Source: Nanopusillaceae archaeon
GTDB taxonomy: Archaea > Nanobdellota > Nanobdellia > Nanobdellales > Nanobdellaceae
DNA length: 32,000 nucleotides
NCBI GenBank assembly: GCA_049974095.1
Contig: JBMFJD010000004.1
Location: forward strand, 30,001 to 62,000
Direction: 5' to 3'
This document shows, piece by piece, positions 3,654-31,253 of the stretch (positions within the stretch are counted from its first letter, which is position 1; every line of letters begins with the position of its first letter). The notes under the pieces are model-generated. The model had not been told where the DNA came from. It did no database searches and worked only from the letters and a program-made list of their open reading frames with translations. A program made the position numbers and the translations under genes.

Positions 3654-4385
3654 CTATAACCAAAATCCCTTTATTTTTCCTTTTTGCCAATCATATAAAA
3701 TAATTCTAGAAATCTTTTTTATCCATTCTTTATCTTTAATGTTATACTTTTCTCTTAATTTTATAAACAAATCTTTTATATTCTCTATTTTTATATTATA
3801 TGCTTCTTCAAATGGTCCTTTACCAATATGTTTATATAAATAAAATACTGCTTTTTTGGGAAATTCTATTTTTTCAACCCTTATTGCTCCTAATATTGCT
3901 AATAAGTATTTATCTTTAGAAACTATAATACCTGGAGAATCTATTAAGTAAAACCTTCTAGATAATTTTACAATTTGCAATCCTTTTGTAAATCCAGGAA
4001 TTGGTGAAGTTTTAGCTCTCTTTTTTCCAACTAATAAATTTATTATTGATGATTTTCCAGTATTCGGATATCCAAACAATCCAATATATACCTTTTCTTT
4101 ATCTTTTGCCATATCTTTTATTACTTTTCTTAATCTTCTACTTCCTTTTCTAGTTTTAGAAGATATATAAACTGTAGGATATTCCTTATTAAATTCATCC
4201 ATTACTATTTCTATAAAATCTTCAGAAACTAGATCAGATTTATTTAAAACTAATATTAGCTTCTTATTTTTATTTACAATATAATTTTCAATAGAATTTA
4301 TTCTACATAATTTTGGAAATCTGGAATCAAGGATTTCAAGAAGGATATCAGATTTATCTATAAGATTTTTTATTTTATTATCCAT
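3654..4385 (-). CDS. Circularly permuted GTPase (YlqF/RbgA/Nog2-like ribosome biogenesis GTPase)
   Basis: 243 aa. The motifs appear in permuted order: G4 LNKSDL comes before G1 GYPNTGKSS and G3 DSPG. Confidence 0.8.
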   Translation of the reverse strand: MDNKIKNLIDKSDILLEILDSRFPKLCRINSIENYIVNKNKKLILVLNKSDLVSEDFIEIVMDEFNKEYPTVYISSKTRKGSRRLRKVIKDMAKDKEKVYIGLFGYPNTGKSSIINLLVGKKRAKTSPIPGFTKGLQIVKLSRRFYLIDSPGIIVSKDKYLLAILGAIRVEKIEFPKKAVFYLYKHIGKGPFEEAYNIKIENIKDLFIKLREKYNIKDKEWIKKISRIILYDWQKGKIKGFWL

Positions 4386-4472
4386 AGTATAATATTTAAT
4401 TAAACTAAAAATAAATTTTCTAATATTAAAAACTATTAGAAGATTTATAAACTAATAAAATAATATAATAAT

Positions 4473-4670
4473 ATGGCAGCAAGAAGAGGAAAAACATTAA
4501 AAGAAGTTTTATTAGAATTATTAAGCACTCCAATGACAATAGATGAATTAGTAAAAGCAGTTAAATCTAAAAGACCAAGGACAAGAGTAAGAGTTGTAAA
4601 GGCATTAGTATCAAGACTAGTAAAAGAAGGATCATTAAAAAGATCAGGAGATAGAATACAAAAAGCCTAG
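4473..4670 (+). CDS. Small basic winged-helix-like protein, function unknown
   Basis: 65 aa, rich in R/K/A/V (MAARRGKTLKEVLLELL..MTIDELVKAV...LVKEGSLKR), with an HTH-like pattern. The family is not identified. Confidence 0.45.
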   Translation: MAARRGKTLKEVLLELLSTPMTIDELVKAVKSKRPRTRVRVVKALVSRLVKEGSLKRSGDRIQKA

Positions 4671-4671
4671 A

Positions 4672-4725
4672 AGATCAGCTTTTTATTTTTCTTCATTTTA
4701 TCTGAAGAACCGATGTTCATCATTT
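4672..4725 (-). ncRNA. C/D box sRNA candidate
   Basis: Minus-strand read: ATGATGA(C, 4723-4717)-ACATCGGTTCTT(12 nt)-CAGA(D')-TAAA-ATGAAGA(C')-AAAATAAAAAG(11 nt)-CTGA(D, 4678-4675). A TTTTATAAAA element lies about 25 nt upstream on the same strand. It is antisense to the 3' flank of the 4473..4670 CDS. Confidence 0.55.
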
Positions 4726-4881
4726 ATTATTCAAAGATCATTTCTTTTATAAAATAATATCTATTAAAAATTTTATATAATATATGTTTATTTCAATATA
4801 TTAGATCTAAAATAAAAATGAACATTTCCAAATAATTCTCTGAATAATTTTTATTATATTTATGAGAATAATAAAATATTC

Positions 4882-4889
4882 TTTAAAAT
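4882..4889 (+). promoter_or_regulatory. TATA-like box upstream of tRNA-Ala
   Basis: TTTAAAAT is centred about 25-26 nt upstream of tRNA position +1 (4911). The AT-rich background limits specificity. Confidence 0.3.
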
Positions 4890-4910
4890 TCTTCTACAAT
4901 TCAAATTATA

Positions 4911-4982
4911 GGGCCCGTAGTCTAGTGGCAGGATGTCGGCCTGGCTAGCCGGAGATCCCGGGTTCGAATCCCGGCGGGTCCA
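4911..4982 (+). tRNA. tRNA-Ala (anticodon GGC)
   Basis: Hand-folded cloverleaf: acceptor GGGCCCG/CGGGTCC with the G3:U70 alanine identity pair, anticodon loop CTGGCTA, T-arm CCGGG-TTCGAAT-CCCGG, discriminator A. No encoded CCA and no intron. It forms a GC-rich island in AT-rich DNA. Confidence 0.93.
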
Positions 4983-4987
4983 TTTTT
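4983..4987 (+). terminator. Oligo-T tract directly after tRNA-Ala
   Basis: TTTTT immediately follows the discriminator base, which is the usual archaeal termination signal. Confidence 0.35.
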
Positions 4988-5012
4988 AAATAAACAAATA
5001 TCCTTAGTACTT

Positions 5013-5432
5013 ATGGAATCTTGGTATATATATGCAATATTAGATTCCTTATTTGCAGCATTTGCAGCAATATTTGCAAAAATTGGTTTAGAAAATGTTA
5101 ACTCATTAACTGCTGCAGCAATTAGATCTATATTTATGATGGTTTTTATATTAATAATTGCTTTATCTCTTGAAAAATCATCATTTTTTACTTCTTTTTC
5201 TTCAAAAAATATTATATTTATTATATTAAGTGCAATTGCTGGTGCATTATCTTGGATATTCTACTTCTTAGCCCTTCAAAAAGGAGATGTTGTTCCTGTA
5301 GCAGTAATAGATAGATCCAGTATTCTATTTGTTATAATTCTATCTATATTATTATTAAATGAAAACCTATCTACAAAAACAATTATTGCATCTATATTTA
5401 TAGTTATAGGTATATATTTGCTATCGATTTAA
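5013..5432 (+). CDS. Single-domain EamA/DMT-superfamily membrane protein (half-size transporter)
   Basis: 139 aa with 4-5 hydrophobic helices. The N-terminus YAILDSLFAAFAAIFAKIGL is typical of the EamA domain. Only one EamA repeat is present. Confidence 0.6.
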   Translation: MESWYIYAILDSLFAAFAAIFAKIGLENVNSLTAAAIRSIFMMVFILIIALSLEKSSFFTSFSSKNIIFIILSAIAGALSWIFYFLALQKGDVVPVAVIDRSSILFVIILSILLLNENLSTKTIIASIFIVIGIYLLSI

Positions 5433-5466
5433 ATTTTTATATCTAAAATTTAGATATTATCTTATA

Positions 5467-5537
5467 GCACCCGTCGTCTAGTGGCAGGATGCGGGCCTTC
5501 CAAGCCCGCGGCCCGGGTTCGAATCCCGGCGGGTGCA
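5467..5537 (+). tRNA. tRNA-Gly (anticodon UCC)
   Basis: Acceptor GCACCCG/CGGGTGC, anticodon stem CGGGC/GCCCG, loop CTTCCAA, 4-nt variable loop, and a T-arm identical to that of tRNA-Ala. No CCA and no intron. It is followed by TTTT. Confidence 0.92.
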
Positions 5538-5573
5538 TTTTAACTTATTAATTTCAAAGATTTTCTAAAAAAT

Positions 5574-6875
5574 ATGGATATTATTGTTGGGAGATCTTTA
5601 GATGATTTGGAAAAATATGGTTTTCTAGGAACAATTTATATTGGAAAAGAATATATAAAAATGGAAAATACATTATCACTAGCAAATAAAATTTATTTAG
5701 ATGTTAATTTACCTCATTTAATATTAATTGCCGGAAAAAGAGGACAAGGAAAAAGTTATACCTTAGCATCATTATTCGAAAGTTTATCTTTATTAGAAAA
5801 AGATTTATTAGAAAACTTTTCTGGATTAATATTTGATACAATGGGTATATTTTGGACTATGAAATTTCCAAACTATAGAGATGCAGAATTATTAGAAAAA
5901 TGGGATTTAAAACCACAATCTGTTCATAATGCTAGGATTTTAGTACCTAAAGGATTATTAGACGAATATAGAAAAATAGATATGCCAATAGATGACGTTT
6001 TTGAATTAAATCCAGCAGATTTATCTGGGATAGAATGGGCATTAGCATTTAACTTAGATCCTTCTTCATCAATTGCATTATATATACAAAGAATAATAAA
6101 GAAAATGAAAGAAAACTCTAATGGATATTCTATACAAGATATAATAAATTATACAGAAAAACTAAATATTGATAGTAAAATAAAAAATGCAATAATAACA
6201 TATTTTGATAATGCAGATAGTTGGGGGTTATTTTCTGAAAAGTCAGAAACAATAAAAAATTTAGTAAAACCTGGATATATAAATATTTTAGATATATCTT
6301 TATATACTGCAATAACTGGTGGATGGTCTATAAAAAATTTAGTAATAGGGTTGGTTGCTAAAAAAATATTTTACCAAAGATTAATATATAGAAAAGTAGA
6401 AGAATTAGAAGAAATATATATATCAAAAGAATTAGGAACAAGAAAATTTCCATTAATTTGGATGGCAATTGATGAGGCACATGAAGCAATACCAAATGAT
6501 TCTATTACTCCAGCAACAGAACCTTTAATACAAATAATAAGAGAAGGAAGACAGCCAGGAATTACTTTAGTATTAGCAACACAACAACCTGGAAAAATGC
6601 ATACCGATGTTATAACACAAAGTGATATCGTAATTTCTCATAGACTAACTGCAGAGAATGATTTAAAATCATTAAATGAAATAATGAAAAACTTTACAGC
6701 ACAAGATATTGATATTTATATGAATGATAATCTACCAAAAAGAAAAGGTGCTGCGTTGATTTTAGATGATAAATCTGAAAGAATATATCCTGTACAAATA
6801 AAACCAAGATTTTCTTGGCATGGAGGAGAGGATCCTACATTAATTAGAAAAAGATTATGGTTAGAATACAAGTAA
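5574..6875 (+). CDS. HerA/FtsK-superfamily P-loop ATPase (DUF87-like)
   Basis: 433 aa. Walker A is AGKRGQGKSYT (nt ~5733-5756), Walker B is LIWMAIDEAHE (nt ~6461-6485), and the REGRQPGITLVLATQQP...ISHRL block is typical of HerA/VirB4/FtsK pumping ATPases. The segment before the P-loop is only about 50 aa. Confidence 0.78.
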   Translation: MDIIVGRSLDDLEKYGFLGTIYIGKEYIKMENTLSLANKIYLDVNLPHLILIAGKRGQGKSYTLASLFESLSLLEKDLLENFSGLIFDTMGIFWTMKFPNYRDAELLEKWDLKPQSVHNARILVPKGLLDEYRKIDMPIDDVFELNPADLSGIEWALAFNLDPSSSIALYIQRIIKKMKENSNGYSIQDIINYTEKLNIDSKIKNAIITYFDNADSWGLFSEKSETIKNLVKPGYINILDISLYTAITGGWSIKNLVIGLVAKKIFYQRLIYRKVEELEEIYISKELGTRKFPLIWMAIDEAHEAIPNDSITPATEPLIQIIREGRQPGITLVLATQQPGKMHTDVITQSDIVISHRLTAENDLKSLNEIMKNFTAQDIDIYMNDNLPKRKGAALILDDKSERIYPVQIKPRFSWHGGEDPTLIRKRLWLEYK

Positions 6876-8968
6876 AAGAAATAGAAGGAGTAATTGCAAT
6901 AGTAATATTTATTTCATTTTTAACTTTTTATTTATCAGTTTATAGAAGCTATATTTTTAATAAAGTAGATAATTATAATCAAATAAACTATTATAATTCG
7001 TATATAAAAAATATTTTAAATAATATTGAAGATAGATATTATTTACTTTCATTTAATGTTACAATACCTATCTCTATGTACTATCAATGCTTACAAAGTT
7101 CTTCAATTTATAATAATTTAATAAATGATAATGCATATAATGATTTTTGTTCGAATTTTCCAATATCTTATCCATTAAATATTTCATTCTTAACTTCTTA
7201 TTCTGGAGTATTAAATAATACAAATAATACTTATCTTGATCCAAATGTTGGTTTATTCTTTTATTTAAATATAGCTAATCTAAATTTATATAATCAGCCA
7301 CAATATGCTTTAGTAAATATTTCAAATCCTTCTGGTCAAAATCTAAATAATTATCCAGTATTTGTTACTTCTCCAGATATTTTTTATTGGTTACAAGAAG
7401 GATATAATTTAAATGTAACAGATTTAAATGGAAATCAATATTATTTTTGTTATTTAAATTCTCAATTTAACTGTAGTAATATAAATAATAATGCTTATGG
7501 GATCTGGATTGATTTAAATATTTCTAAAAACCGTTATATAATATTAAATATTTCTCCAATATCAAATAATAATCCATATTCAGTAGATGGATCTCAAATA
7601 TTCCCATTTTACGATCATTTTACATACCAAAATTATCAACAATTTAGTCAAAACTGGTATAATAATACTCCAATAAGCATTACTCCTTTGAATCCTGGAG
7701 ATCAAATTTCTTCTAGCTCTTTTAAAATTTATTCTAAAAAAACAATAAATAAAGGATATTATTTAATATTATTCAATATACAAAATATTAATTCTCTGAG
7801 TTCTGGTAATATAAATATTGGAGATAGTTGTAAAATAAGTCTTCAATCAAATAACAAACCATATTTCTATTATTGTAATGTTAATGATAATAATGTAGAT
7901 ATATCAATATCTGCTAATGGACGAACATATGCTTATTATTTAATTTTAATTCCATATAATATTATACCACGAATAAATATTATCTATCAACCAAATATTA
8001 CTCAAACATTTAATTTTATTATCGGCCCAAATTTAACATATGATTTTTCTCAATACAACGATTTAATAAAAGGTATAAATAGTATCGCAAATAATTACGT
8101 AAAATATAAAGAATCTTCTTCTTCCTATGGTTATATAATTTCATCTACTAATTATTTTAATCATTTATTCTATTATTTATATACTTCTCAATATGAACCT
8201 TCTAATTTAGGTTCTAGATATATATATAATGAATCTTTATCTTTAATTTACTTATATTCTACTCAGAATTTATCTATTAAAAAAATATTATTTTCTAACA
8301 CATCTTGGTTCATATTGAATACTCAAAAATATTATAATTCTTCCAATATGATATATTGGAATACTTCTCAAAATAACTATGGATTTACTTATAATATTAT
8401 TAATTTTTATAATCTTCTTTTATCCTATGACAATTCTTTGCTAAACAATTATTTATATTATCCATACGAAAATGGAATAATACTTTCCAATTCTAATAAT
8501 TTTGCTCTTTTATTTACAAATTATTATCCATTAGTTAATATAACATTAAATATAACAGTTAGCAATTCTATGATCTACTCTAATACTAATTATTATTATC
8601 TATTAAATTTAACTTTATTGAATAACTATCCCTATCAAGATTATTATCTATATTTTTATGATAATCCAAATCTAGATAAAGAAACTGCAAAATATTTAGC
8701 ATTCTCTACACAAATTCCAATAATGAAAATAAATTATATAGAACCAATAAATATAATAAATATAAATAATCTATTACAAGAATCTCAAAATTATCCAGAT
8801 ATTTATTTTTATTTCGAAAATGAAAATATTACAATATATAATGGAATAATATATCAAGGAAATGTTGCAAATAATTATCAATATTCACAAGAATATAGTA
8901 TTTATGTATTAAATACAACAAATGTAAATGATCTATATAAAGATAATTTAATAATATATATAAAATGA
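6857..8968 (+). CDS. Large N-terminally anchored, Asn/Tyr-rich predicted surface glycoprotein
   Basis: An uninterrupted 703-codon ORF in AT-rich DNA. It has one N-terminal hydrophobic helix (GVIAIVIFISFLTFYL) and roughly two dozen N-x-S/T sequons by eye. Its start overlaps the ATPase stop by 19 nt. Confidence 0.75.
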   Translation: MVRIQVKEIEGVIAIVIFISFLTFYLSVYRSYIFNKVDNYNQINYYNSYIKNILNNIEDRYYLLSFNVTIPISMYYQCLQSSSIYNNLINDNAYNDFCSNFPISYPLNISFLTSYSGVLNNTNNTYLDPNVGLFFYLNIANLNLYNQPQYALVNISNPSGQNLNNYPVFVTSPDIFYWLQEGYNLNVTDLNGNQYYFCYLNSQFNCSNINNNAYGIWIDLNISKNRYIILNISPISNNNPYSVDGSQIFPFYDHFTYQNYQQFSQNWYNNTPISITPLNPGDQISSSSFKIYSKKTINKGYYLILFNIQNINSLSSGNINIGDSCKISLQSNNKPYFYYCNVNDNNVDISISANGRTYAYYLILIPYNIIPRINIIYQPNITQTFNFIIGPNLTYDFSQYNDLIKGINSIANNYVKYKESSSSYGYIISSTNYFNHLFYYLYTSQYEPSNLGSRYIYNESLSLIYLYSTQNLSIKKILFSNTSWFILNTQKYYNSSNMIYWNTSQNNYGFTYNIINFYNLLLSYDNSLLNNYLYYPYENGIILSNSNNFALLFTNYYPLVNITLNITVSNSMIYSNTNYYYLLNLTLLNNYPYQDYYLYFYDNPNLDKETAKYLAFSTQIPIMKINYIEPINIININNLLQESQNYPDIYFYFENENITIYNGIIYQGNVANNYQYSQEYSIYVLNTTNVNDLYKDNLIIYIK

Positions 8969-9285
8969 GAAGTTGGATAATCCTAGTTGAACTTGCATTT
9001 TCAATAATCCTATTAACAGTATTTTTCTTATATATTTATTATTTTAGATCTCAAAATATTATTATTGAAAATTTTGATCCAAATAATTTAAGATACCTAA
9101 ATGTATCATGTAATAATAATCTATATACGTATGAAATAATAAATTTAACAAATAATAATATAACAATATGCTATTTTGGAAGGCAAGCAAATTATACATA
9201 TATAGAAAATTTAAAACCAATATTTGAATATTTATATTCTGGCCAAAACAATTTTAACCCTTATATTTTAATAGTATTATCATGA
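8965..9285 (+). CDS. Small pilin-like membrane/secreted protein
   Basis: 106 aa. Its start lies in an ATGA overlap with the upstream stop. MRS-WIILVELAFSIILL gives a 3-aa charged leader followed by a hydrophobic helix. Sequons and 2 Cys are present. Confidence 0.6.
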   Translation: MRSWIILVELAFSIILLTVFFLYIYYFRSQNIIIENFDPNNLRYLNVSCNNNLYTYEIINLTNNNITICYFGRQANYTYIENLKPIFEYLYSGQNNFNPYILIVLS

Positions 9286-9722
9286 AATCTCAATATATTT
9301 TATTAGCAACAATTTTAATAATTATTTTCATATCTTTTTTAACCTATTATAATTTAAAACCAATAAATAATATTAATGCAAATTTAATTGGAGAAAATTT
9401 CAAAAATGAAATAATATATACATATAAATACTTTGGATACAAATATGTTGGAAATTATACATTTTATTTTGAGAATTATACAAATAATATTGGATATAAT
9501 TTTTCTTTTATTTGTATTTCATCATATAATTTATCAATACCACAATGCAATGGAAATAATATAAATTGTTGTTATTATTTTTCTGGATATTTCTATGTAA
9601 ATTCTTCAATATTAATTTTCTGCAATGAGAACTTTATGATATATAATCCTCCAAATTGGATTTGCTTTTGTTATCAATTGAATAATTCTAATGAATACTA
9701 TTCAAATTTCTTTTGTATTTAA
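9282..9722 (+). CDS. Small pilin-like, cysteine-rich secreted protein
   Basis: 146 aa with an ATGA overlap start. MKS-QYILLATILIIIFISFL forms the leader plus helix. The C-terminal half has 9 Cys and several sequons. Confidence 0.6.
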   Translation: MKSQYILLATILIIIFISFLTYYNLKPINNINANLIGENFKNEIIYTYKYFGYKYVGNYTFYFENYTNNIGYNFSFICISSYNLSIPQCNGNNINCCYYFSGYFYVNSSILIFCNENFMIYNPPNWICFCYQLNNSNEYYSNFFCI

Positions 9723-10189
9723 CATTTATATACAAAAAAACCAGATGTTGTTTTATTTAAAATCAGACAAATATCATTTCCATAAAATGTATAATTATTT
9801 GATATTATATTAAAGGGTATTGTATTCATTGTAAAATTATATAAGAAATTATTTGAAGGTAATTGAGTAATATTTAAATTTATATATGATGGAACACTCA
9901 AAGAATAATTTATTGGAGAAATATATAAACTTTCTATTGTTCCATTAAATATATAAACTGTTAAACCATTCGGAATATTTTGTTGGAATTTATATGTACA
10001 TGAATAACATGATCCTATCATATCTATTTGATAATTTAAATCTGTTAATAGATTAACAGTATATTTTAAATTTATTTGTGCTTGTTGATTCAAAATTGTT
10101 AAATGAACATAATATAATACAATAGATAAAACAGATATGGCAAAAGATGTATATATTAAAAATTCAACCCATAAACTTATTCCTTTCAT
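9719..10189 (-). CDS. Small pilin-like secreted protein with class III-like signal
   Basis: 156 aa. MKG-ISLWVEFLIYTSFAISVL resembles an archaeal prepilin/archaellin signal. The mature part is rich in N-x-S/T. Its start overlaps the rps19e stop (ATGA), and its stop overlaps the stop of the 9282..9722 ORF (TTAA). Confidence 0.62.
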   Translation of the reverse strand: MKGISLWVEFLIYTSFAISVLSIVLYYVHLTILNQQAQINLKYTVNLLTDLNYQIDMIGSCYSCTYKFQQNIPNGLTVYIFNGTIESLYISPINYSLSVPSYINLNITQLPSNNFLYNFTMNTIPFNIISNNYTFYGNDICLILNKTTSGFFVYKC

Positions 10190-10704
10190 GTAACATTTTT
10201 AACATAATCAACTAAATTTTTATTTTCTTTACTTAATTCTTTATATATTTCATTTGCCAATTTATCCATTATACTTTTTCCATTATTTGTTACAACTCTC
10301 CCTCTCTTCTGTCCATCCATTATTTTCATAACAAATCCCGCTTGTTCCAATTGTTGCAAAATTAATCTGATAATTTTTCCATATCCTCTAACAAATTTTC
10401 CAGGTTCCATACCTCTTTTTCTCAATCCCCCATATTTTTTTCTTAATCTAGATATTCCAACAGGCCCTTTTAAATATACTTGTCTCAAAATTGAAGCTGC
10501 TCTATAATACCACCATCCAGGTCCTCCATTATAATCTACATCTGGAGGAAAATCCGGATTTCTTTCTCTATCTGGTCCTGTTCTAATAAAAAAAGCCCAT
10601 GTTGGTGGTTTAATTATTTCTTTATAATTTTCAAATAAATGTTTTGCTAATCTTTCAACATATATTTGTCCAGGTATTTCTCTTACCGAAACCATAATAT
10701 GCAA
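10186..10704 (-). CDS. rps19e: 30S ribosomal protein S19e (eS19)
   Basis: The WAFFIRTG...GWWYYRAASILRQVYL..PVGISRLRKKYGG core is diagnostic. The true start may be the MVSVREIPG Met at 10695. Confidence 0.9.
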   Translation of the reverse strand: MHIMVSVREIPGQIYVERLAKHLFENYKEIIKPPTWAFFIRTGPDRERNPDFPPDVDYNGGPGWWYYRAASILRQVYLKGPVGISRLRKKYGGLRKRGMEPGKFVRGYGKIIRLILQQLEQAGFVMKIMDGQKRGRVVTNNGKSIMDKLANEIYKELSKENKNLVDYVKNVT

Positions 10705-15133: not shown

Positions 15134-16522
15134 ATGGGTGTTATAAGAGAAAAATTATTAGAATTCTATAAGAAAAATAATGAAATTTTAGAAGATATAG
15201 TTAAAATTTCACAAAATAGAGAAGTTGGATATTTATTAACAAATGGTTCCTTTGGTCATAGACCATCAAAAATTGAAACAAAAGATGATATAATTGAATA
15301 TATAAAAAAAGGAGCATTATCTTTTCATATTTCAATTGAAAGATGGATAGATTTAAATGTTCTTGAAGAAAATACATCAAAAAAAGAATTAAGTGAATAC
15401 AGATTGGGATGGGACTTTATTATTGATATAGATTCTAAATCTTTAGATTTATCTAAAATTACTGCAAGATTAATTGTAGATTATTTAAAAGAAAAAAATA
15501 TTAAACCTGTATATATAAAATATTCTGGAGGAAAAGGATTGCATATTGCAATACCATGGGAAATATTCCCTGAAACAGTAAATATTGAGAAAAAAGAAGA
15601 AATTGTTGAGGAAGAGACAAGAAAATTGTTCCCAGATTTAGCAAGAATATTAGCATTATATATTGCTGAAGAAATTAGAGAAAAATTAAAAAAATTAATT
15701 TTATTAAAATTTAATGAAGAAGAATTGAAAAATTTTGGAATAAATAATATAGAAAAATTTGATCCATATGAAATTGTAGAAATAGATACTATTTTAATTT
15801 CTTCTAGACATCTAATAAGATGCTTATATTCAATAAATGAAAAAACTGGTAACTTATCTGTACCTATAAAAGAAAATTATATAGAAAAATTAAAACCTGA
15901 AGATGCAAGTTTAGATAATTATTCATATGAAGGGATACCATATTTAACTGAAGATCTTGAAAAAAGAGAATCTAAAGAGTTTAAAGATCTAATTTACTCT
16001 TCATTTTTATGGAAAATAAATAATGAATTAAAAAGTAAACAAATACAACATTTAGCAGAAAAATATAAAAATCAGGAAGGAATTGAAGAAGCTGAAAAAG
16101 ATATTGAAGAAATAAAAAAGAAAAAAATAGAAATAGATGAATCTTTATTCCCACCCTGTATTAAAAATATATTAAGTGAAAATATAGAAGATGGAAGAAA
16201 AAGAGCTGTATTTATTTTAATTAACTTTTTAGCAAATATAGGATGGGATTGGGATAAAATAGAAAAATATGTTAAGGAATGGAATGATAAATTAAATGAA
16301 CCATTAAGGGATAGATATATCGAATACCAATTAGAATGGCACAAAAAATTATATAAAGAAAATAAAAGATATTTAACACCAAATTGTAATAATGAAATAT
16401 ATTATAAAGATATTGGAATATGTCAACCTGATGAAATATGTTCTTTAATTAAAAATCCATTATCTTATCCAATTAAAAAGATTAAAAATATAAAATCTTC
16501 TCAGGATTCTCAAAATAGTTAA
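15134..16522 (+). CDS. priS: DNA primase, fused PriS catalytic domain plus PriL-like Fe-S C-terminal domain
   Basis: 462 aa. AEP motifs DFIIDIDS, SGGKGLHIAIP and SSRHLIR are present. The C-terminal part carries LFPPCIKNIL...GRKRAVFILINFL plus three further Cys (PNC, GIC, EIC), as in the PriL 4Fe-4S domain. Confidence 0.75.
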   Translation: MGVIREKLLEFYKKNNEILEDIVKISQNREVGYLLTNGSFGHRPSKIETKDDIIEYIKKGALSFHISIERWIDLNVLEENTSKKELSEYRLGWDFIIDIDSKSLDLSKITARLIVDYLKEKNIKPVYIKYSGGKGLHIAIPWEIFPETVNIEKKEEIVEEETRKLFPDLARILALYIAEEIREKLKKLILLKFNEEELKNFGINNIEKFDPYEIVEIDTILISSRHLIRCLYSINEKTGNLSVPIKENYIEKLKPEDASLDNYSYEGIPYLTEDLEKRESKEFKDLIYSSFLWKINNELKSKQIQHLAEKYKNQEGIEEAEKDIEEIKKKKIEIDESLFPPCIKNILSENIEDGRKRAVFILINFLANIGWDWDKIEKYVKEWNDKLNEPLRDRYIEYQLEWHKKLYKENKRYLTPNCNNEIYYKDIGICQPDEICSLIKNPLSYPIKKIKNIKSSQDSQNS

Positions 16523-16868
16523 TATAAAATTTTAATTTTTCAATATTTTTTCTTAAATTTTCTACTTCTCTTACTTTAAAATATTTAAAGAATTTTCTTC
16601 TATCTCTATCATTAATAATTATTCCTTCGGATTCTAATAAATTTTTCAAATATTTATACAAAGAATTTCCCTTATTATCATTATCTGTTAATATTATTGC
16701 CTCTTTAAAATATAAAGACAAATTTTCCAATTTCTTAATTTCATATATTGTATATATATTATTTAATCCTAATTCTTTTAAAACATCTTTATCTCTTTTC
16801 CCTTCAACTATAATAAAAGTATCTTTTTTATTCTTAATATATAATAAAAAACCAATACTACCTTTCAT
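16482..16868 (-). CDS. Small Toprim-domain protein (UPF0292/RNase M5-like)
   Basis: 128 aa. It has the Toprim Glu (IIVEGKRDK) and DxD (ILTDNDNKG). It converges on the primase gene with a 41-nt overlap. Confidence 0.65.
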   Translation of the reverse strand: MKGSIGFLLYIKNKKDTFIIVEGKRDKDVLKELGLNNIYTIYEIKKLENLSLYFKEAIILTDNDNKGNSLYKYLKNLLESEGIIINDRDRRKFFKYFKVREVENLRKNIEKLKFYINYFENPEKILYF

Positions 16869-16933
16869 AACATATCTTTATTATTATTCTTTTATAAGAT
16901 TAATTTTTATTTTTACTAGTAGTATATTTTAAT

Positions 16934-17419
16934 ATGCCTCCAAAGGAGAGAATTGTTGATGGTAAAACATTCTCGTATACAGGGTTAATTGACTTTGGAA
17001 AATTTTACAAATCTGCAAAAGAATTTTGGGATACAAAAGGATTTGATTTTCTTGAAAATAAACATGAAGAAAAAGTAAAAGATGATGGATCTAGATCTAT
17101 TAATTTAGAATGGCATACTGAAAAGAAAGTAACTGATTATGTTACATATAGCTATGATATATCCATTACTGCAGATAGTTTAAAGATATTAGACAATTTA
17201 AGACAATATATAGAAAACCTTGTAATAAAAATAAATGGAGATCTAATAACTGATTATCAAAAATATTTCGGGAATAAACCATTTAATATATTTCTTAGAG
17301 GATTATTTGAAAAATATTTATATGATAGCGAATTAAAGGATCATAAGAAGAATGTTGGAAAAATTGCTGATGATTTTCTAAATTTGGCAAAAGATTTTAC
17401 AGCAGCATTTAAATTATGA
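16934..17419 (+). CDS. Hypothetical protein (paralog A of tandem pair)
   Basis: 161-aa ORF. I recognise no family. It shares a pattern with the next ORF. Confidence 0.55.
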   Translation: MPPKERIVDGKTFSYTGLIDFGKFYKSAKEFWDTKGFDFLENKHEEKVKDDGSRSINLEWHTEKKVTDYVTYSYDISITADSLKILDNLRQYIENLVIKINGDLITDYQKYFGNKPFNIFLRGLFEKYLYDSELKDHKKNVGKIADDFLNLAKDFTAAFKL

Positions 17420-17958
17420 ACTGGGAACAAATATATCAAACAAGAGTAAGATCAAAAATAAAGTTTATACCACAAGATTTTTATGAAAAATTTAAGAAAT
17501 TTTTAGAAGGAGAAGAATGGGAAGGAATATTCAAAAAAGATAGATATGAAAAATATTATTATCATAAATTAACACCAGATGGTTTATTATTTATTGAAGC
17601 ACAATGGGAAATGTATAAAAACTATTGGAAAGAAGAACCAAAAATTGATTGGAAATTAGAAATTACAATACTTGTTAATGGTTATAATATAAATACACTA
17701 GTTGGAGATTTAGATATAAGTATAAAAAGCTCACATAATGTAGAAGACTTTAGAGAACCAAATACAAGTAAATCAAAAGGTACAGAAAAAATATTATTAT
17801 CCTTTGGATTTAAAAAAATAATGAAAGGATTAGTATCAAATTTAGAAAGAGTTAGAGGAAAAAAGAAATTAATAGATATGTCTGGAAGAGATTTATATAA
17901 TGAATCTGAAAAAATAAAAGATTGGATTATTGATTATTTTAAATTATATAAATATTAA
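17416..17958 (+). CDS. Hypothetical protein (paralog B of tandem pair)
   Basis: 180-aa ORF that starts in an ATGA overlap with the previous ORF. It appears distantly similar to that ORF by eye. Confidence 0.55.
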   Translation: MNWEQIYQTRVRSKIKFIPQDFYEKFKKFLEGEEWEGIFKKDRYEKYYYHKLTPDGLLFIEAQWEMYKNYWKEEPKIDWKLEITILVNGYNINTLVGDLDISIKSSHNVEDFREPNTSKSKGTEKILLSFGFKKIMKGLVSNLERVRGKKKLIDMSGRDLYNESEKIKDWIIDYFKLYKY

Positions 17959-18332
17959 ATATTAAAAATTTCTATATTTAATTCCTTCGCCTTATTTATT
18001 ATTTGTTCTCTTTTTCTTTTTCCAACAGTAGATGCAATAATTGCTGCTTCCTTCTCCTTATCAATTTTTTCTAATTCTTCAACATTATGAACAATTACTG
18101 GTCTTTTTCCATTTGGTAATAATCCTTTAATTTCCTTTGGGGATCCATATCCAACCTCTACCATTCTTGGCCTTCCTTTTAATTTTTTCCTCATTTTATT
18201 GTGTATTCCTTTTGGTCTTCTCCATGATTCCATACTATTTCTTTGAGATATAGATCTCCACCAATATGGTCTCCAATAATCCGGTTTTTTCCTCTTAATT
18301 TTCTTTCTTAATTTTAATAATTTTTCTCTCAT
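17955..18332 (-). CDS. rpl32e: 50S ribosomal protein L32e (eL32)
   Basis: SWRRPKGIHNKMRKKLKGRP..VEVGYGSPK is the diagnostic core. Confidence 0.9.
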   Translation of the reverse strand: MREKLLKLRKKIKRKKPDYWRPYWWRSISQRNSMESWRRPKGIHNKMRKKLKGRPRMVEVGYGSPKEIKGLLPNGKRPVIVHNVEELEKIDKEKEAAIIASTVGKRKREQIINKAKELNIEIFNI

Positions 18333-18862
18333 GGTTTTTCAACAATATATATTCCATCCTGGAATTTTCTTAAATCCTTTTCTTTTATTTTTGCTGAATT
18401 TTCTATTAATCCTGCAAGATTTCCTAATACTTCTATATCATATCCCTCTAATATTATTTCGTTCTCATTTACTGTTACTTTTACTCCCTTTGGTATTTCA
18501 ATTTCTTTTGGTGCTCTACCACCCATAAAATTTTCAATTATTAATTTATTTTCCTGTACTTTTAATTTTATTGGAAAATGGATATATACAGCTCTTAACT
18601 TATATTTGTATCCATTTATTACACCATTTATATCATTTTTTATATGAGAAATCATTGTATAGAAATCTCTTAATAATCTTTTTGATGGAAAATATACTTT
18701 AACAACTATTTTATTATCCTTTTTTTCTACAATTATATTTCTATTATTTATTTTTCTTTCTTTTTCTCCTATAGGTCCCTTAATCTTTATTATATTATTT
18801 TCTATCTCTATATTTACATTATTTGGAACATCTATTTCTTCAACAATGACTGGAGGTCTCAT
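18329..18862 (-). CDS. rpl6: 50S ribosomal protein L6 (uL6)
   Basis: 177 aa with a two-repeat L6 fold (IKIKGPIGE..., VTVNENEIILEGYD), upstream of rpl32e as in archaeal spc operons. Confidence 0.88.
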   Translation of the reverse strand: MRPPVIVEEIDVPNNVNIEIENNIIKIKGPIGEKERKINNRNIIVEKKDNKIVVKVYFPSKRLLRDFYTMISHIKNDINGVINGYKYKLRAVYIHFPIKLKVQENKLIIENFMGGRAPKEIEIPKGVKVTVNENEIILEGYDIEVLGNLAGLIENSAKIKEKDLRKFQDGIYIVEKP

Positions 18863-18892
18863 CTTATCTTAATATATAAATAAAGTTAAAAA

Positions 18893-19423
18893 TTATTCTT
18901 TTACAACATTAACCCCAAAATTATTCCTTAAATATTCTATTACCTCTTCCTTTGTAGTCCTATGTCTCTTTGGTATTTTTGCTCCTTTTATTCTTCTCTT
19001 CATCACTCTATATCCAGGTCTCTTTACCGTTACTATTACATCCATTCCATATATTCCAATTTCTGGATCATACTTTAATCCTGGTATCCAAACATATTCT
19101 TTTATTCCAAAACCAAAGTTTCCATATTCATCAAATTGAGATTCTTTTAAAGTATTATTTACAGCTTTTAATAACCATTTTAAAGCATCTTCAGCTTCTT
19201 TTCTCCTTAATGTTAATTTTACTCCAATTTCCAATCCAGGTCTTATTCCCCATGCTTGTACCCTTTTCTTTGCCCTTGTTCTTACAGGTTTTCTATTTGG
19301 AAACATCTTTTTTAATAATTTTTCTGCTTTTTCTAATGGTTCTCCAGGTTTTCCTACCCCAATATTTATTGTTAATTTATCTATTAAAATCCTTCTCATA
19401 GGATTATCTTTATTCTTGCTCAT
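18893..19423 (-). CDS. rpl5: 50S ribosomal protein L5 (uL5)
   Basis: NPMRRILIDKLTINIGVG and FGFGIKEY..PG motifs. Confidence 0.9.
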   Translation of the reverse strand: MSKNKDNPMRRILIDKLTINIGVGKPGEPLEKAEKLLKKMFPNRKPVRTRAKKRVQAWGIRPGLEIGVKLTLRRKEAEDALKWLLKAVNNTLKESQFDEYGNFGFGIKEYVWIPGLKYDPEIGIYGMDVIVTVKRPGYRVMKRRIKGAKIPKRHRTTKEEVIEYLRNNFGVNVVKE

Positions 19424-28973: not shown

Positions 28974-29534
28974 TTAAATAATGCTTTTTTGTATTTCTTC
29001 TTCAATATTTTTTAAATTCTCTCCTAATTCATATATTGAATCTCTTCCTTTTACAGTTATTAAATTTCTATCAACAAAATAATTATGATTTGTTATTAAT
29101 TTTACTCCAGAATTTTCGAAATATTTTAGATATTCTGGAAATTCGTCATAATTATATACAATTGATCTTCCAACCAAAAGACCAGATTTTAAAAATGCAA
29201 TTTGTGCTAATGAAGATAATATTACTGTTCTATATGAATTTAAAAATCTTGTAAATATAGATTGTATTTCTACATCCATAAATTCTTTGTATCCTCTATC
29301 TGCAATAAAAATTATTCTATCAAAATGATTTTCTTTCATTAAAAATATTTCATGTGTATCAAAATCTGGTAATACTTTGCTTTTATATCTTCCAATACTA
29401 ATTTCTCTTTTTGGAATTGCAACATAATTTCTTCCATCTAATATATCAAAAAAATTAAATAAATCATCATCATCAAATCCTCTTCTTGGTAATACTATTA
29501 AATTCATTTTCATAAAATATAATAAATACTTCAA
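28974..29534 (-). CDS. DJ-1/PfpI-fold (class I glutamine amidotransferase-like) protein, divergent
   Basis: 186 aa. By-eye fit to the family: LIVLPRRGFDDDDL..., FDRIIFIADRG, VILSSLAQIAFLKSGLLVGRSIV, FVDRNLITVKG. The probable start is MNLIVLP. Its stop codon abuts the tRNA-Ser 3' end. Confidence 0.4.
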   Translation of the reverse strand: MKYLLYFMKMNLIVLPRRGFDDDDLFNFFDILDGRNYVAIPKREISIGRYKSKVLPDFDTHEIFLMKENHFDRIIFIADRGYKEFMDVEIQSIFTRFLNSYRTVILSSLAQIAFLKSGLLVGRSIVYNYDEFPEYLKYFENSGVKLITNHNYFVDRNLITVKGRDSIYELGENLKNIEEEIQKSII

Positions 29535-29576: not shown

Positions 29577-31253
29577 ATGTCAGATATTAAATTAGAAGAT
29601 TTAAGAAATGAAAAAATTGAGGATAATAAACATAAATTATTGGAAATAAAACTAATATTTGATAATCCAAATATAAGATTTGAACAGATATATTTCTGGT
29701 TATTAGATTTTATAAGGGATAGCTTAAAAATGAATATAAGTAAATTATCCGATGAATTTACATCTTCTGTAGGTTCTTTATTTTTTGGAGAAATGAGTCA
29801 AAGAGCAACTGCAGTATTAAATACTGCCAGATCATTGGGAGAATTATTTAATACATTGACAAGATCAATTATATCAATTTTAAGTGAATATAAACAGATA
29901 CAAACAAGGATTTTTCTATATGAAAAAATATTATCAAATGATAAAGATGAAGCATATAGTGCATATTTAACATTAAAAGATATATGGATAAATAATGTAG
30001 ATACAAATAGAGGTGCTGCAAGCTTAGCAAATATATCTAGGGGAAGATTAGGATTTGCAACTGCAATAGATTTATTTTATATTTCTGATCTAAAAAATGA
30101 ACTTGAAAAATTAAAAAATAAAGGAATTATTGGAGAATCTCTATTTAATAAAATATTTAACGAACAATATAATATACCAAGAGATTTAAATGAAATAAAA
30201 AATAAAGGAATAATAAATGAACAAATATATAATGTTGTAAATATTAGATTACAAGAATTTTATAACTGGTTAGAAATAAATAAGAAATATCTATATGATA
30301 GAAATAATTTATTAAAAGCATATTTAAGGCATCAATTGAGCTCTTTATTATATTATGTTGAATTTGCAAAACCATATTTCAAATTTGCAAGAAAATTATT
30401 ACAAAATCCTGAACAACCTATAGATGTTGTAAATGCATTAGAAACTGCAATTATTAACTTAACATTATTTTCTACTGGAAAAGAAACTAATGTAAAAGAG
30501 TATAATGAAAAAGAAGAAAAAGAAGGAGAAAAAACATATTTACCATTATATGAAATTGATATAACTGCAAGAGCATTACCAACATTAACTGGAAGAGTTG
30601 AAGGTACAAGAATGTATTCATTCATTGGAAGAGCTGATATATATTTAAGAGCATATATTGTAGAAAAAAGTGAATATGAAAATATATTAGTAAATCAGGA
30701 AGCAGAGGATTTGTTATATATTACAGGATTAACTGATGAATATTTAAAAGATATGTCTGATATAATTTTGGAGATGTTTTTATATGATATAATAAAAAAT
30801 GACGAAAAATTATTAAAATTAGTTGCAAATAGGTCAAATGCAAAACCTGATGAAATAAAAAACAATCCTTATAAAATAAAATGGACTAAAGAATTAATTG
30901 AAGAATTGGAAAAGAATGAAAGAATAAAAAAAGCAATGGGAAGTATAAGATGGATAAAAAAATATTTAGAATCTGAAAAAAAGGAAGAAAAAAATGAGGA
31001 GAAAAAAGAAGAAAAAGAAGGAGAATCCGGAATTCAATTAATATTTCCAAGTTTATCCAATATATTTATGAAAATATTTGAATTCATTACAACTTTTGGT
31101 AAAGACTTAAATGAAATTGGAAAGAATATAAAAAAGAAAAATATAGAAAATGAAAAGAAATATATTATGGATGATTTAAAGGATAAAACAATAGATACTG
31201 CCTGGAAAATTTATATGACATTTAAGAAAACATTTGGTATGTTAAATTATTAA
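29577..31253 (+). CDS. Large hypothetical, mostly alpha-helical protein with K/E-rich linkers
   Basis: An uninterrupted 558-codon ORF in AT-rich DNA. It has no signal peptide, TM segment or nucleotide-binding motif that I can see, and I recognise no family. Confidence 0.7.
   Translation: MSDIKLEDLRNEKIEDNKHKLLEIKLIFDNPNIRFEQIYFWLLDFIRDSLKMNISKLSDEFTSSVGSLFFGEMSQRATAVLNTARSLGELFNTLTRSIISILSEYKQIQTRIFLYEKILSNDKDEAYSAYLTLKDIWINNVDTNRGAASLANISRGRLGFATAIDLFYISDLKNELEKLKNKGIIGESLFNKIFNEQYNIPRDLNEIKNKGIINEQIYNVVNIRLQEFYNWLEINKKYLYDRNNLLKAYLRHQLSSLLYYVEFAKPYFKFARKLLQNPEQPIDVVNALETAIINLTLFSTGKETNVKEYNEKEEKEGEKTYLPLYEIDITARALPTLTGRVEGTRMYSFIGRADIYLRAYIVEKSEYENILVNQEAEDLLYITGLTDEYLKDMSDIILEMFLYDIIKNDEKLLKLVANRSNAKPDEIKNNPYKIKWTKELIEELEKNERIKKAMGSIRWIKKYLESEKKEEKNEEKKEEKEGESGIQLIFPSLSNIFMKIFEFITTFGKDLNEIGKNIKKKNIENEKKYIMDDLKDKTIDTAWKIYMTFKKTFGMLNY

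Follow-up and report, generated by a model that had tools for sequence, protein, structure and literature searches.

Candidate Type IV Pilin-like Proteins Encoded beside a HerA-like ATPase in Nanopusillaceae Archaea

Introduction

Does a HerA-like ATPase whose gene runs directly into a set of genes for pilin-like surface proteins power a machine built from those proteins, or is it an independent enzyme that happens to be encoded next to them? The question is raised by a locus at positions 5574-10189 of a 32,000-nt stretch of the genome of a Nanopusillaceae archaeon (contig JBMFJD010000004.1; ~24% G+C; hereafter "the window," that is, the whole stretch that was analyzed). A preliminary description of this DNA had proposed a distinct, HerA-powered envelope machine that would unite the ATPase with the surface proteins. 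The reading toward which we lean is that the segment 6857-10189 encodes a lineage-specific type-IV-pilin-like set, composed of three small minor-pilin-like proteins and one large lectin-like modular subunit, which probably serves host contact and whose motors would be encoded elsewhere, and that the ATPase is independent of it.

Nanopusillaceae include cultivated obligate ectosymbionts, as in the Nanopusillus-Acidilobus and Nanobdella-Metallosphaera associations. Type IV pilus (T4P) motors have been reported in nanoarchaea, their cognate pilins never having been identified (PMC4858521, PMC6142677). The YNP Nanoarchaeota were described as having an archaellum in addition to two T4P systems, together with four homologues of FlaJ/TadC and hypothetical surface proteins that evolve fast (Jarett et al. 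2018, PMC6142677); for Nanobdella, ArlBHIJ and two filament types were described (bioRxiv 10.1101/2023.10.27.564410). Where earlier surveys had motors but no pilins, the block fills in concrete candidates, namely a 703-aa protein resembling lectins and carbohydrate-binding modules (CBMs) and three small pilin-like proteins, with orthologues in Nanobdella; the four may be the missing cognate pilins.

Results

The ATPase gene (5574-6875, plus strand) encodes a soluble 433-aa HerA-like P-loop ATPase of the DUF87 family and is followed on the same strand by p703 (6857-8968; 703 aa), an N-terminally anchored, sequon-rich candidate modular pilin or tip adhesin, p106 (8965-9285; 106 aa), a pilin-like protein that begins MRS/WIILVELAFSIILL (the slash marks the end of the putative leader), and p146 (9282-9722; 146 aa), a Cys-rich (8 Cys) pilin-like protein that begins MKS/QYILLATILIII. 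A fourth gene, p156 (9719-10189, minus strand; 156 aa, pilin-like, MKG/ISLWVEFLIYTSF), converges on the block. As previously described, the ATPase and p703 genes share 19 nt, two ATGA overlaps link p703, p106 and p146, and the convergent stop codons of p146 and p156 overlap within TTAA at 9719-9722. The preliminary description had missed that the ATG of p156 (at 10189) itself overlaps the stop codon of the gene for ribosomal protein S19e (10186-10704, minus strand; Pfam Ribosomal_S19e, 6e-41), again as ATGA; S19e, which is context and lies outside the system, is upstream on the same strand, and p156 therefore follows the S19e transcription direction and is not part of an ATPase operon. It had likewise missed how common such overlaps are: among 30 same-strand neighbor pairs in this genome, 15 overlap, 10 of the 30 by exactly 4 nt, so that overlap is the norm here and says nothing about function. 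Each of the five genes is conserved in related genomes, with 55-81% amino acid identity in Nanobdella aerobiophila, and all are for this reason taken to be real. The string ATPase-p703-p106-p146-(p156)-S19e is syntenic in Nanobdella aerobiophila, strain YN1, NZ13-N and Nanopusillus RSNS12. The apparent co-transcription of a surface protein, p156, with a ribosomal protein gene is also kept in Nanobdella, YN1, NZ13-N and RSNS12. In Nanobdella, MJ1_0640 is confirmed by name as the p156 orthologue and the remaining block orthologues are apparently MJ1_0637-0639, with the ATPase as MJ1_0636, numbers deduced from gene order; this group is not discussed in bioRxiv 10.1101/2023.10.27.564410.

The four surface proteins share a build found nowhere else in the window: each has one hydrophobic segment, and that segment is N-terminal. 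Their K+R+D+E content is 6-10%, versus ~30% in the remaining window proteins, their Asn content is 12-18%, and sequons number 3.42 per 100 aa, as compared with 0.50 in the other 43 window proteins; the 38 sequons of the block exceed the 24.6 +/- 4.2 seen in composition-preserving shuffles (p ~0.002). The description of the four as sequon-rich proteins with a short leader and a single N-terminal helix thus stands, and their pilin-like character is borne out at the N termini. There, leaders of 3-11 aa (3 aa in three of the proteins), ending mostly in [KRE][GAS], are followed by a hydrophobic helix of ~20 aa, and the combination of short charged leader, small residue at position -1 and hydrophobic helix is present in all four, around a site that is only loosely conserved. 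In p703 (22 sequons), the leader, MVRIQVKEIEG/VIAIVIF, is class III signal-like; the p703 orthologues carry K-E-[IVL]-E-[GA] directly before the helix, with G, G, G, G, A, A, S and G at position -1 in eight of them, and the sister-clade N termini read MKG/TSLSWV, MRS/IALSWV and MKRA/ISHIEW. In p106 (MRS/WIILVELAFS; orthologues in five genomes) and p146 (MKS/QYILLAT), the -1 residue is mostly S, with N, T or G as exceptions. The p156 family has the motif M[KR][GSA]xSxWxE[FY]L[IM]Y across 12 representatives, with G, S or A at position -1 in 9/10 representatives, and its N terminus resembles MYGNKG/ISFTLEAII, that of a small minor-pilin-like protein in a bona fide T4P locus (L097; L numbers are our handles for the loci compared). 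Both p106 and p156 have a conserved Glu inside the N-terminal helix.

Beyond these N termini, the proteins are restricted in distribution and in recognizable similarity. Scans of Pfam, NCBIfam, PADLOC and PHROGs gave no match for any of the four. Homologues of p703 number only 54, all in Nanopusillaceae, and tblastn shows homology to the large protein encoded after the ATPase at the sister-clade loci L086 (541 aa; 1.8e-12) and L010 (539 aa; 2e-15). An exhaustive profile search with p156 returned the 12 family representatives only, all of ~150 aa and none annotatable. The AlphaFold2 model of p703 is confident only at residues ~150-377 and 630-703 (pLDDT 73-91), and these regions match CBM6/29/4/22 as well as CBM-like receptor-binding domains of binary toxins and Vip3A (E 5e-5 to 2e-3; target-normalized TM-score up to 0.57), so that part of p703 models as carbohydrate-binding-like beta-sandwiches, which suggests a glycan-binding adhesin module. 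The model of p156, built from a 6-sequence alignment, predicts a helix at residues 6-49 and then five strands at low confidence (mean pLDDT 44.8), and with Foldseek it found no counterpart in the PDB. A strict FlaFind-like regular expression failed even on control pilins and was dropped as a test.

No T2SSE, T2SSF or A24 peptidase is encoded among the window proteins, in agreement with the earlier statement that a pilus motor and a prepilin peptidase are missing here, and polytopic proteins are limited to an EamA half-transporter, YdjM and an M50 peptidase. A connection to T4P motors is seen in the sister-clade genome of L086 (GCA_054017035.1), whose ATPase is 66% identical to that of the window. 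There, an M48 gene and the ATPase gene precede genes for proteins of 541, 92 and 130 aa; T2SSF (284 aa), T2SSF (496 aa) and T2SSE (509 aa) come directly after these, with MgtC, Rpr2, a 195-aa protein and S19e beyond. The proteins of 92 and 130 aa correspond in position to p106 and p146, whose N-terminal motifs recur in them (MLQVLEAAIAIMLLL and MKSQLMIIATAAII, respectively). When a p146 profile was run against 3356 open reading frames (ORFs) in a non-circular hidden Markov model (HMM) search, the best non-self hits were the 92-aa and 130-aa proteins of L086 and one p106 orthologue. A p106-only HMM failed to recover the 92-aa protein, so its putative homology to p106 is a matter of position and N-terminal motif only. 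A near-identical T2SSE with T2SSF, MgtC, Rpr2 and S19e is present at L127, and in both L086 and L127 S19e lies a few kilobases past the T4P motor. Since S19e is linked to the block in L086 and in Nanopusillaceae, and to the motor in L086 and L127, parsimony favors an ancestral order of block, T4P motor, S19e, from which the motor would have been relocated or lost at this position in Nanopusillaceae. Among 35 metagenomic loci with relatives of the L086 T2SSE, T2SSF lies beside T2SSE in most, and a DUF87 ATPase is found in none (0/35). One of the 35, the canonical T4P locus L097 (T2SSE 48% identical to the L086 protein), contains a 1022-aa N-anchored NosD/beta-helix/CBM96 protein, four small proteins with an N-terminal transmembrane (TM) segment and three Pilin_N-type pilins. 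On a separate AT-rich metagenomic contig (L100; 26% G+C), a 96-aa protein with a pilin-like N terminus, MRG/QLLLEQMLYIILYIF (8677-8967), is encoded directly upstream of a T2SSE gene (9009-10586).

The ATPase motifs noted earlier, GKRGQGKS, AIDEAHE and REGRQPG..LATQQP, are present and unchanged across 15 family members, in which Walker A, Walker B, the REGRQPG arginine-finger region, ATQQPG and a C-terminal WHGG are invariant. Of the placement within a HerA/VirB4/FtsK group, the HerA part holds: in a PDB search with the 15-sequence family profile, HerA structures scored best (5.5e-16 to 4e-10), FtsK was marginal and VirB4 gave no match. Pfam gave DUF87 (E = 6e-10; 40 bits, cut-off 23.2) and weakly HerA_C (8.6e-5), PADLOC gave mad8 (9e-20) and HerA models, the NCBIfam HerA equivalog models scored 29-43 bits against cut-offs of 800-970, and there were weak matches to the EssC/EccC family. 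These profiles place the protein in the HerA branch of the FtsK-HerA superfamily. It shares with HerA (both HerA-NurA and anti-phage HerA) the DUF87/HerA_C core with Walker A/B and an arginine finger but is ~130-150 aa shorter and is without the N-terminal HAS-barrel region (~100 aa before the core in HerA). Its Walker A begins at residue 54, with the stretch ahead of it put at only ~45 residues, and HMMER aligns its residues 33-84 to HerA residues 126-178, so that ~90 N-terminal residues are lacking; on this alignment the HAS-barrel is missing or vestigial. No TM segment is predicted. No NurA, Mre11, Rad50, Sir2 or other usual HerA partner is encoded in the window, as had been observed before, or in the loci of 12 annotated relatives. 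Unlike PADLOC anti-phage HerA/MADS systems, the partners match no effector (Sir2, DUF4297), and the gene is core and syntenic in the phylum. Homologues number 4458, among them a protein of a Nanopusillaceae metagenome-assembled genome that is 100% identical, and a scan of one genome per GTDB species confirmed at least 584 loci, mostly labeled Woesearchaeota, Pacearchaeota and Nanoarchaeota and 43-50% identical; by this distribution, the ATPase is a pan-Nanoarchaeota family and a core gene of the phylum. We found no description of the clade in the literature, and the analysis flags it as an uncharacterized HerA-like clade of >580 Nanoarchaeota species. At L035, the first ATPase gene is directly followed in tandem by that of a second, divergent DUF87 paralogue (445 aa; 5992-7329).

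The gene order around the ATPase differs sharply between its own clade and the rest of the phylum. In the sister clade, where the ATPase is 64-67% identical, an overlapping gene for an N-anchored large protein follows it in L086, L010 and L089, and the ATPase/big-protein adjacency was found only there and in Nanopusillaceae; the conservation of gene order that the preliminary description had called for checking is thus real up to the level of this family and its sister clade and is lost beyond it; the lack of conservation in relatives that it had named among its grounds for refutation is therefore observed beyond family level. In all ~76 loci outside these two groups, the gene downstream of the ATPase is unrelated (Trm5/TYW2 and others). 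In a lineage at 58% ATPase identity, a radical-SAM gene lies downstream, and the function of the ATPase is therefore likely to be independent of the surface proteins. Recurrent neighbors elsewhere belong to information processing (Trm5/TYW2, an RFC-like AAA+ protein, DnaG, FEN1, an SSB-like OB-fold protein and PolB), and immediately upstream, in divergent orientation, there are SurA/PrsA-like peptidyl-prolyl isomerases (~17 loci), DsbA-like thioredoxins (9-11) and M48/HtpX peptidases (8-16). Membrane proteins occupy position -1 in 42% of cases as compared with ~25-30%, a mild and phylogenetically non-independent excess. These isomerases, DsbA-like proteins and M48/HtpX are envelope folding and quality-control factors, and among loci L012-L085 they occur upstream in many genomes of Woesearchaeota/Pacearchaeota type, where the SurA/PrsA-like isomerase carries an N-terminal TM segment; in L086 and L010 the M48 gene runs in the same direction as the ATPase gene and overlaps it. 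A conserved ~100-aa protein without a Pfam match (MPFSKSFPK..YP.WEEVFL.EEEE..) is encoded on the same strand ~0.1-0.5 kb past the ATPase in 16 loci, including L015, L017, L032, L042, L059, L068 and L078, and may be an ATPase partner in those lineages. Archaellin-family (ArlF/ArlG-like) genes lie 1-2.5 kb from the ATPase in L009 (6678-7136, minus strand) and L010 (11588-12469, plus strand), with Arch_flagellin E values of 9.5e-5 and 9.6e-9, respectively. A general association between the ATPase and T4P genes was considered as evidence and rejected: T2SSE or an A24 peptidase lies within ~5 kb in ~6-7 of ~90 loci, which is about the chance level by a rough estimate.

Discussion

Taken together, the best reading of the ATPase is that it would be a separate, uncharacterized HerA-like hexameric translocase without a HAS-barrel, not part of a surface-protein machine, and its position next to the block is best read as an arrangement specific to the lineage, which is no evidence for a single machine. 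The surface proteins, specific to Nanopusillaceae and the sister clade, are most likely parts of an ordinary T4P or adhesin set and not of a new ATPase-driven machine. In such a set, the proteins would enter the membrane as prepilin-like subunits by way of their short basic leader and hydrophobic N-terminal helix. Their extraction, and their assembly via the N-terminal helices, would fall to a canonical T2SSE/T2SSF motor of the PilB/PilC type with genes at another site in the genome, and the resulting priming or tip complex, or short fiber, would display the putative glycan-binding module of p703 for host contact. Minor-pilin and pseudopilin tip complexes and modular pilins are known from bacteria, such as GspH-I-J-K, FimU-PilVWX and S. 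sanguinis PilB/PilC (PMC8179133). With its four pilin-like subunits, of which one far exceeds the rest in size and carries an adhesion module, the block is like complexes of the GspH-I-J-K type and by this analogy may encode a priming or tip complex; it has no sequence or demonstrated structural homology to the bacterial complexes and modular pilins. A further comparison is with archaeal T4P loci (L097; survey by Makarova, Koonin & Albers 2016, PMC4858521), with which the block shares small short-leader/N-helix proteins, a large N-anchored protein with carbohydrate-binding-type beta-domains and richness in sequons, and in L086 the set adjoins T2SSF/T2SSE. It differs from these loci in that the window has no motor, KaiC-like protein or recognizable major pilin, in the 3-aa leaders of three of the four proteins, in a -1 residue that is not strictly G/A/S, in the lack of pilin HMM matches and in being co-oriented and overlapping with a HerA-like ATPase.

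Several observations weigh against the T4P-like reading. Pilin_N (PF07790), Class_IIIsignal (PF04021) and Arch_flagellin (PF01917) match none of the four proteins at E<=1; as a control, the bona fide pilins of L097 likewise fall below the Pfam cut-offs. Some orthologues have N, T or D at position -1, and the A24 prepilin peptidase is reported missing from two nanoarchaea (PMC4858521), which together make classical prepilin processing doubtful; the loose site and the 3-residue leaders agree with the reported lack of the peptidase but also weaken a strict class III assignment. With the low-confidence p156 model (pLDDT 44.8), Foldseek gave no match to the PDB better than E = 0.17. The p146-profile matches to the L086 counterparts are marginal (E 0.016-0.06), the adjacency of block and motor is known from one genome (L086), and in the genome that holds both L010 and L127 the motor and the ATPase/539-aa pair lie on separate contigs. 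Finally, the ATPase/big-protein adjacency is kept, with an overlap of 4-19 nt, in every one of the 9 genomes in which the big protein occurs; 3 of these 9 are sister-clade genomes with different flanks, so the adjacency could reflect real coupling.

Several of these points would be expected if the four proteins were signal-anchored, or Sec-exported and processed by signal peptidase, and acted as surface glycoproteins (adhesins or S-layer-associated proteins) that never form a filament, with the ATPase unrelated to them. The missing pilin HMM matches, the variable -1 residue and the lack of a fold match for the low-confidence p156 model fit this explanation, as do the lack of an A24 peptidase in the window and its reported lack in the two nanoarchaea (PMC4858521), and Nanobdella encodes many Ig- or lectin-like surface proteins with an N- or C-terminal TM segment (bioRxiv 10.1101/2023.10.27.564410). 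We nevertheless regard it as rather doubtful, given that the Glu in the helix and the preceding [KR][GSA], present in most members, are features of prepilins and not of Sec signal peptides, that a homologous block adjoins T2SSF/T2SSE in L086, and that the layout of one big and several small proteins with N-terminal TM segments recurs in the T4P locus L097.

A single machine made up of ATPase and surface proteins, as in the preliminary description, is not supported: the ATPase has unrelated neighbors in the ~76 loci elsewhere, adjacency does not extend beyond a single family-level clade, the L086 block abuts a canonical T2SSF-T2SSF-T2SSE array, published surveys report nanoarchaeal T4P motors that lack identified pilins (PMC4858521, PMC6142677), and overlaps are uninformative in this genome. 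A functional coupling, in which the HerA-like ATPase would from the cytoplasm drive a new system for envelope assembly or secretion, by analogy with the FtsK-like EssC of type VII secretion, and in Nanopusillaceae would serve the pilin-like set with which it would be co-transcribed, is in our view unlikely. It draws on the overlap retained in 9/9 genomes despite the differing sister-clade flanks, on the SurA/PrsA-like, DsbA-like and M48/HtpX genes that often adjoin the ATPase elsewhere and on the weak EssC/EccC-family matches. The ATPase, however, lacks both a TM segment and a conserved membrane partner, it occurs in >580 species without the block, neighbors from DNA replication (RFC-like, DnaG, FEN1, SSB-like OB, PolB) are equally recurrent, position -1 shows a mild, phylogenetically non-independent excess of membrane proteins, and the closest structural relatives of the ATPase are the DNA-acting HerA proteins. 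A broader version, to which we give slightly less credence again, is that the ATPase would not be a DNA enzyme at all but the cytoplasmic motor of a previously unrecognized archaeal surface-protein export or assembly system, a HerA-type counterpart of the FtsK-like EssC of type VII secretion; the conserved translational coupling to pilin-like adhesins in Nanopusillaceae, the SurA/PrsA-, DsbA- and HtpX-like neighbors and the peptidase missing in two nanoarchaea are consistent with it.

Import of DNA by a Ced/Ted-like system, with a VirB4/HerA-like ATPase and small pilus-forming membrane proteins, was the parallel drawn earlier. A HerA-superfamily ATPase does lie beside small membrane proteins here, and Ted loci often carry HerA-like genes (PMC9905601). 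The observation that the block has no polytopic protein is correct, but the likeness fails on every defining feature that we tested: CedA/TedA is a polytopic channel of 6-7 TM helices, and CedA1 and CedA2 have two TM helices each (PMC9905601), whereas the block has no such channel, its small proteins have one TM segment and an ectodomain of 80-130 aa, and the ATPase profile matches HerA and not VirB4. This makes a Ced/Ted-like role very improbable. Yet more remote is an integrated virus or mobile element, with an inovirus-like Zot/pI ATPase and coat and adhesin proteins forming a morphogenesis module. Weak Zot and terminase/FtsK PHROG matches to the ATPase core and a layout of one large and several small single-TM proteins point in that direction, but the ATPase gene, being core in the phylum, has no relatives in a scan of 2.9 million viral contigs, and the block lies in conserved chromosomal synteny with housekeeping genes and has the base composition of its flanks, so that distribution and synteny effectively refute a viral module.

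Other Features of the Window and of Related Loci

Four further ORFs in the window, at 29577-31253 (plus strand, 558 aa), 16934-17419 (plus strand, 161 aa), 17416-17958 (plus strand, 180 aa) and 28974-29513 (minus strand, 179 aa), encode charge-rich, predicted cytoplasmic proteins with no Pfam match at E<=0.01. Upstream of the ATPase gene, tRNA-Ala(GGC) (4911-4982) and tRNA-Gly(TCC) (5467-5537) bracket a gene for a 139-aa, half-size EamA transporter of the drug/metabolite transporter type (DMT; 5013-5432), from which the ATPase gene is separated by a tRNA gene; this tRNA/EamA insert is not present at the matching position in Nanobdella. At L127, in the sister-clade genome GCA_964573185.1, the segments 4047-7811 and 16289-19042 contain inteins (Intein_splicing, LAGLIDADG) inside a Cdc48 homologue and a second T2SSE-family ATPase.

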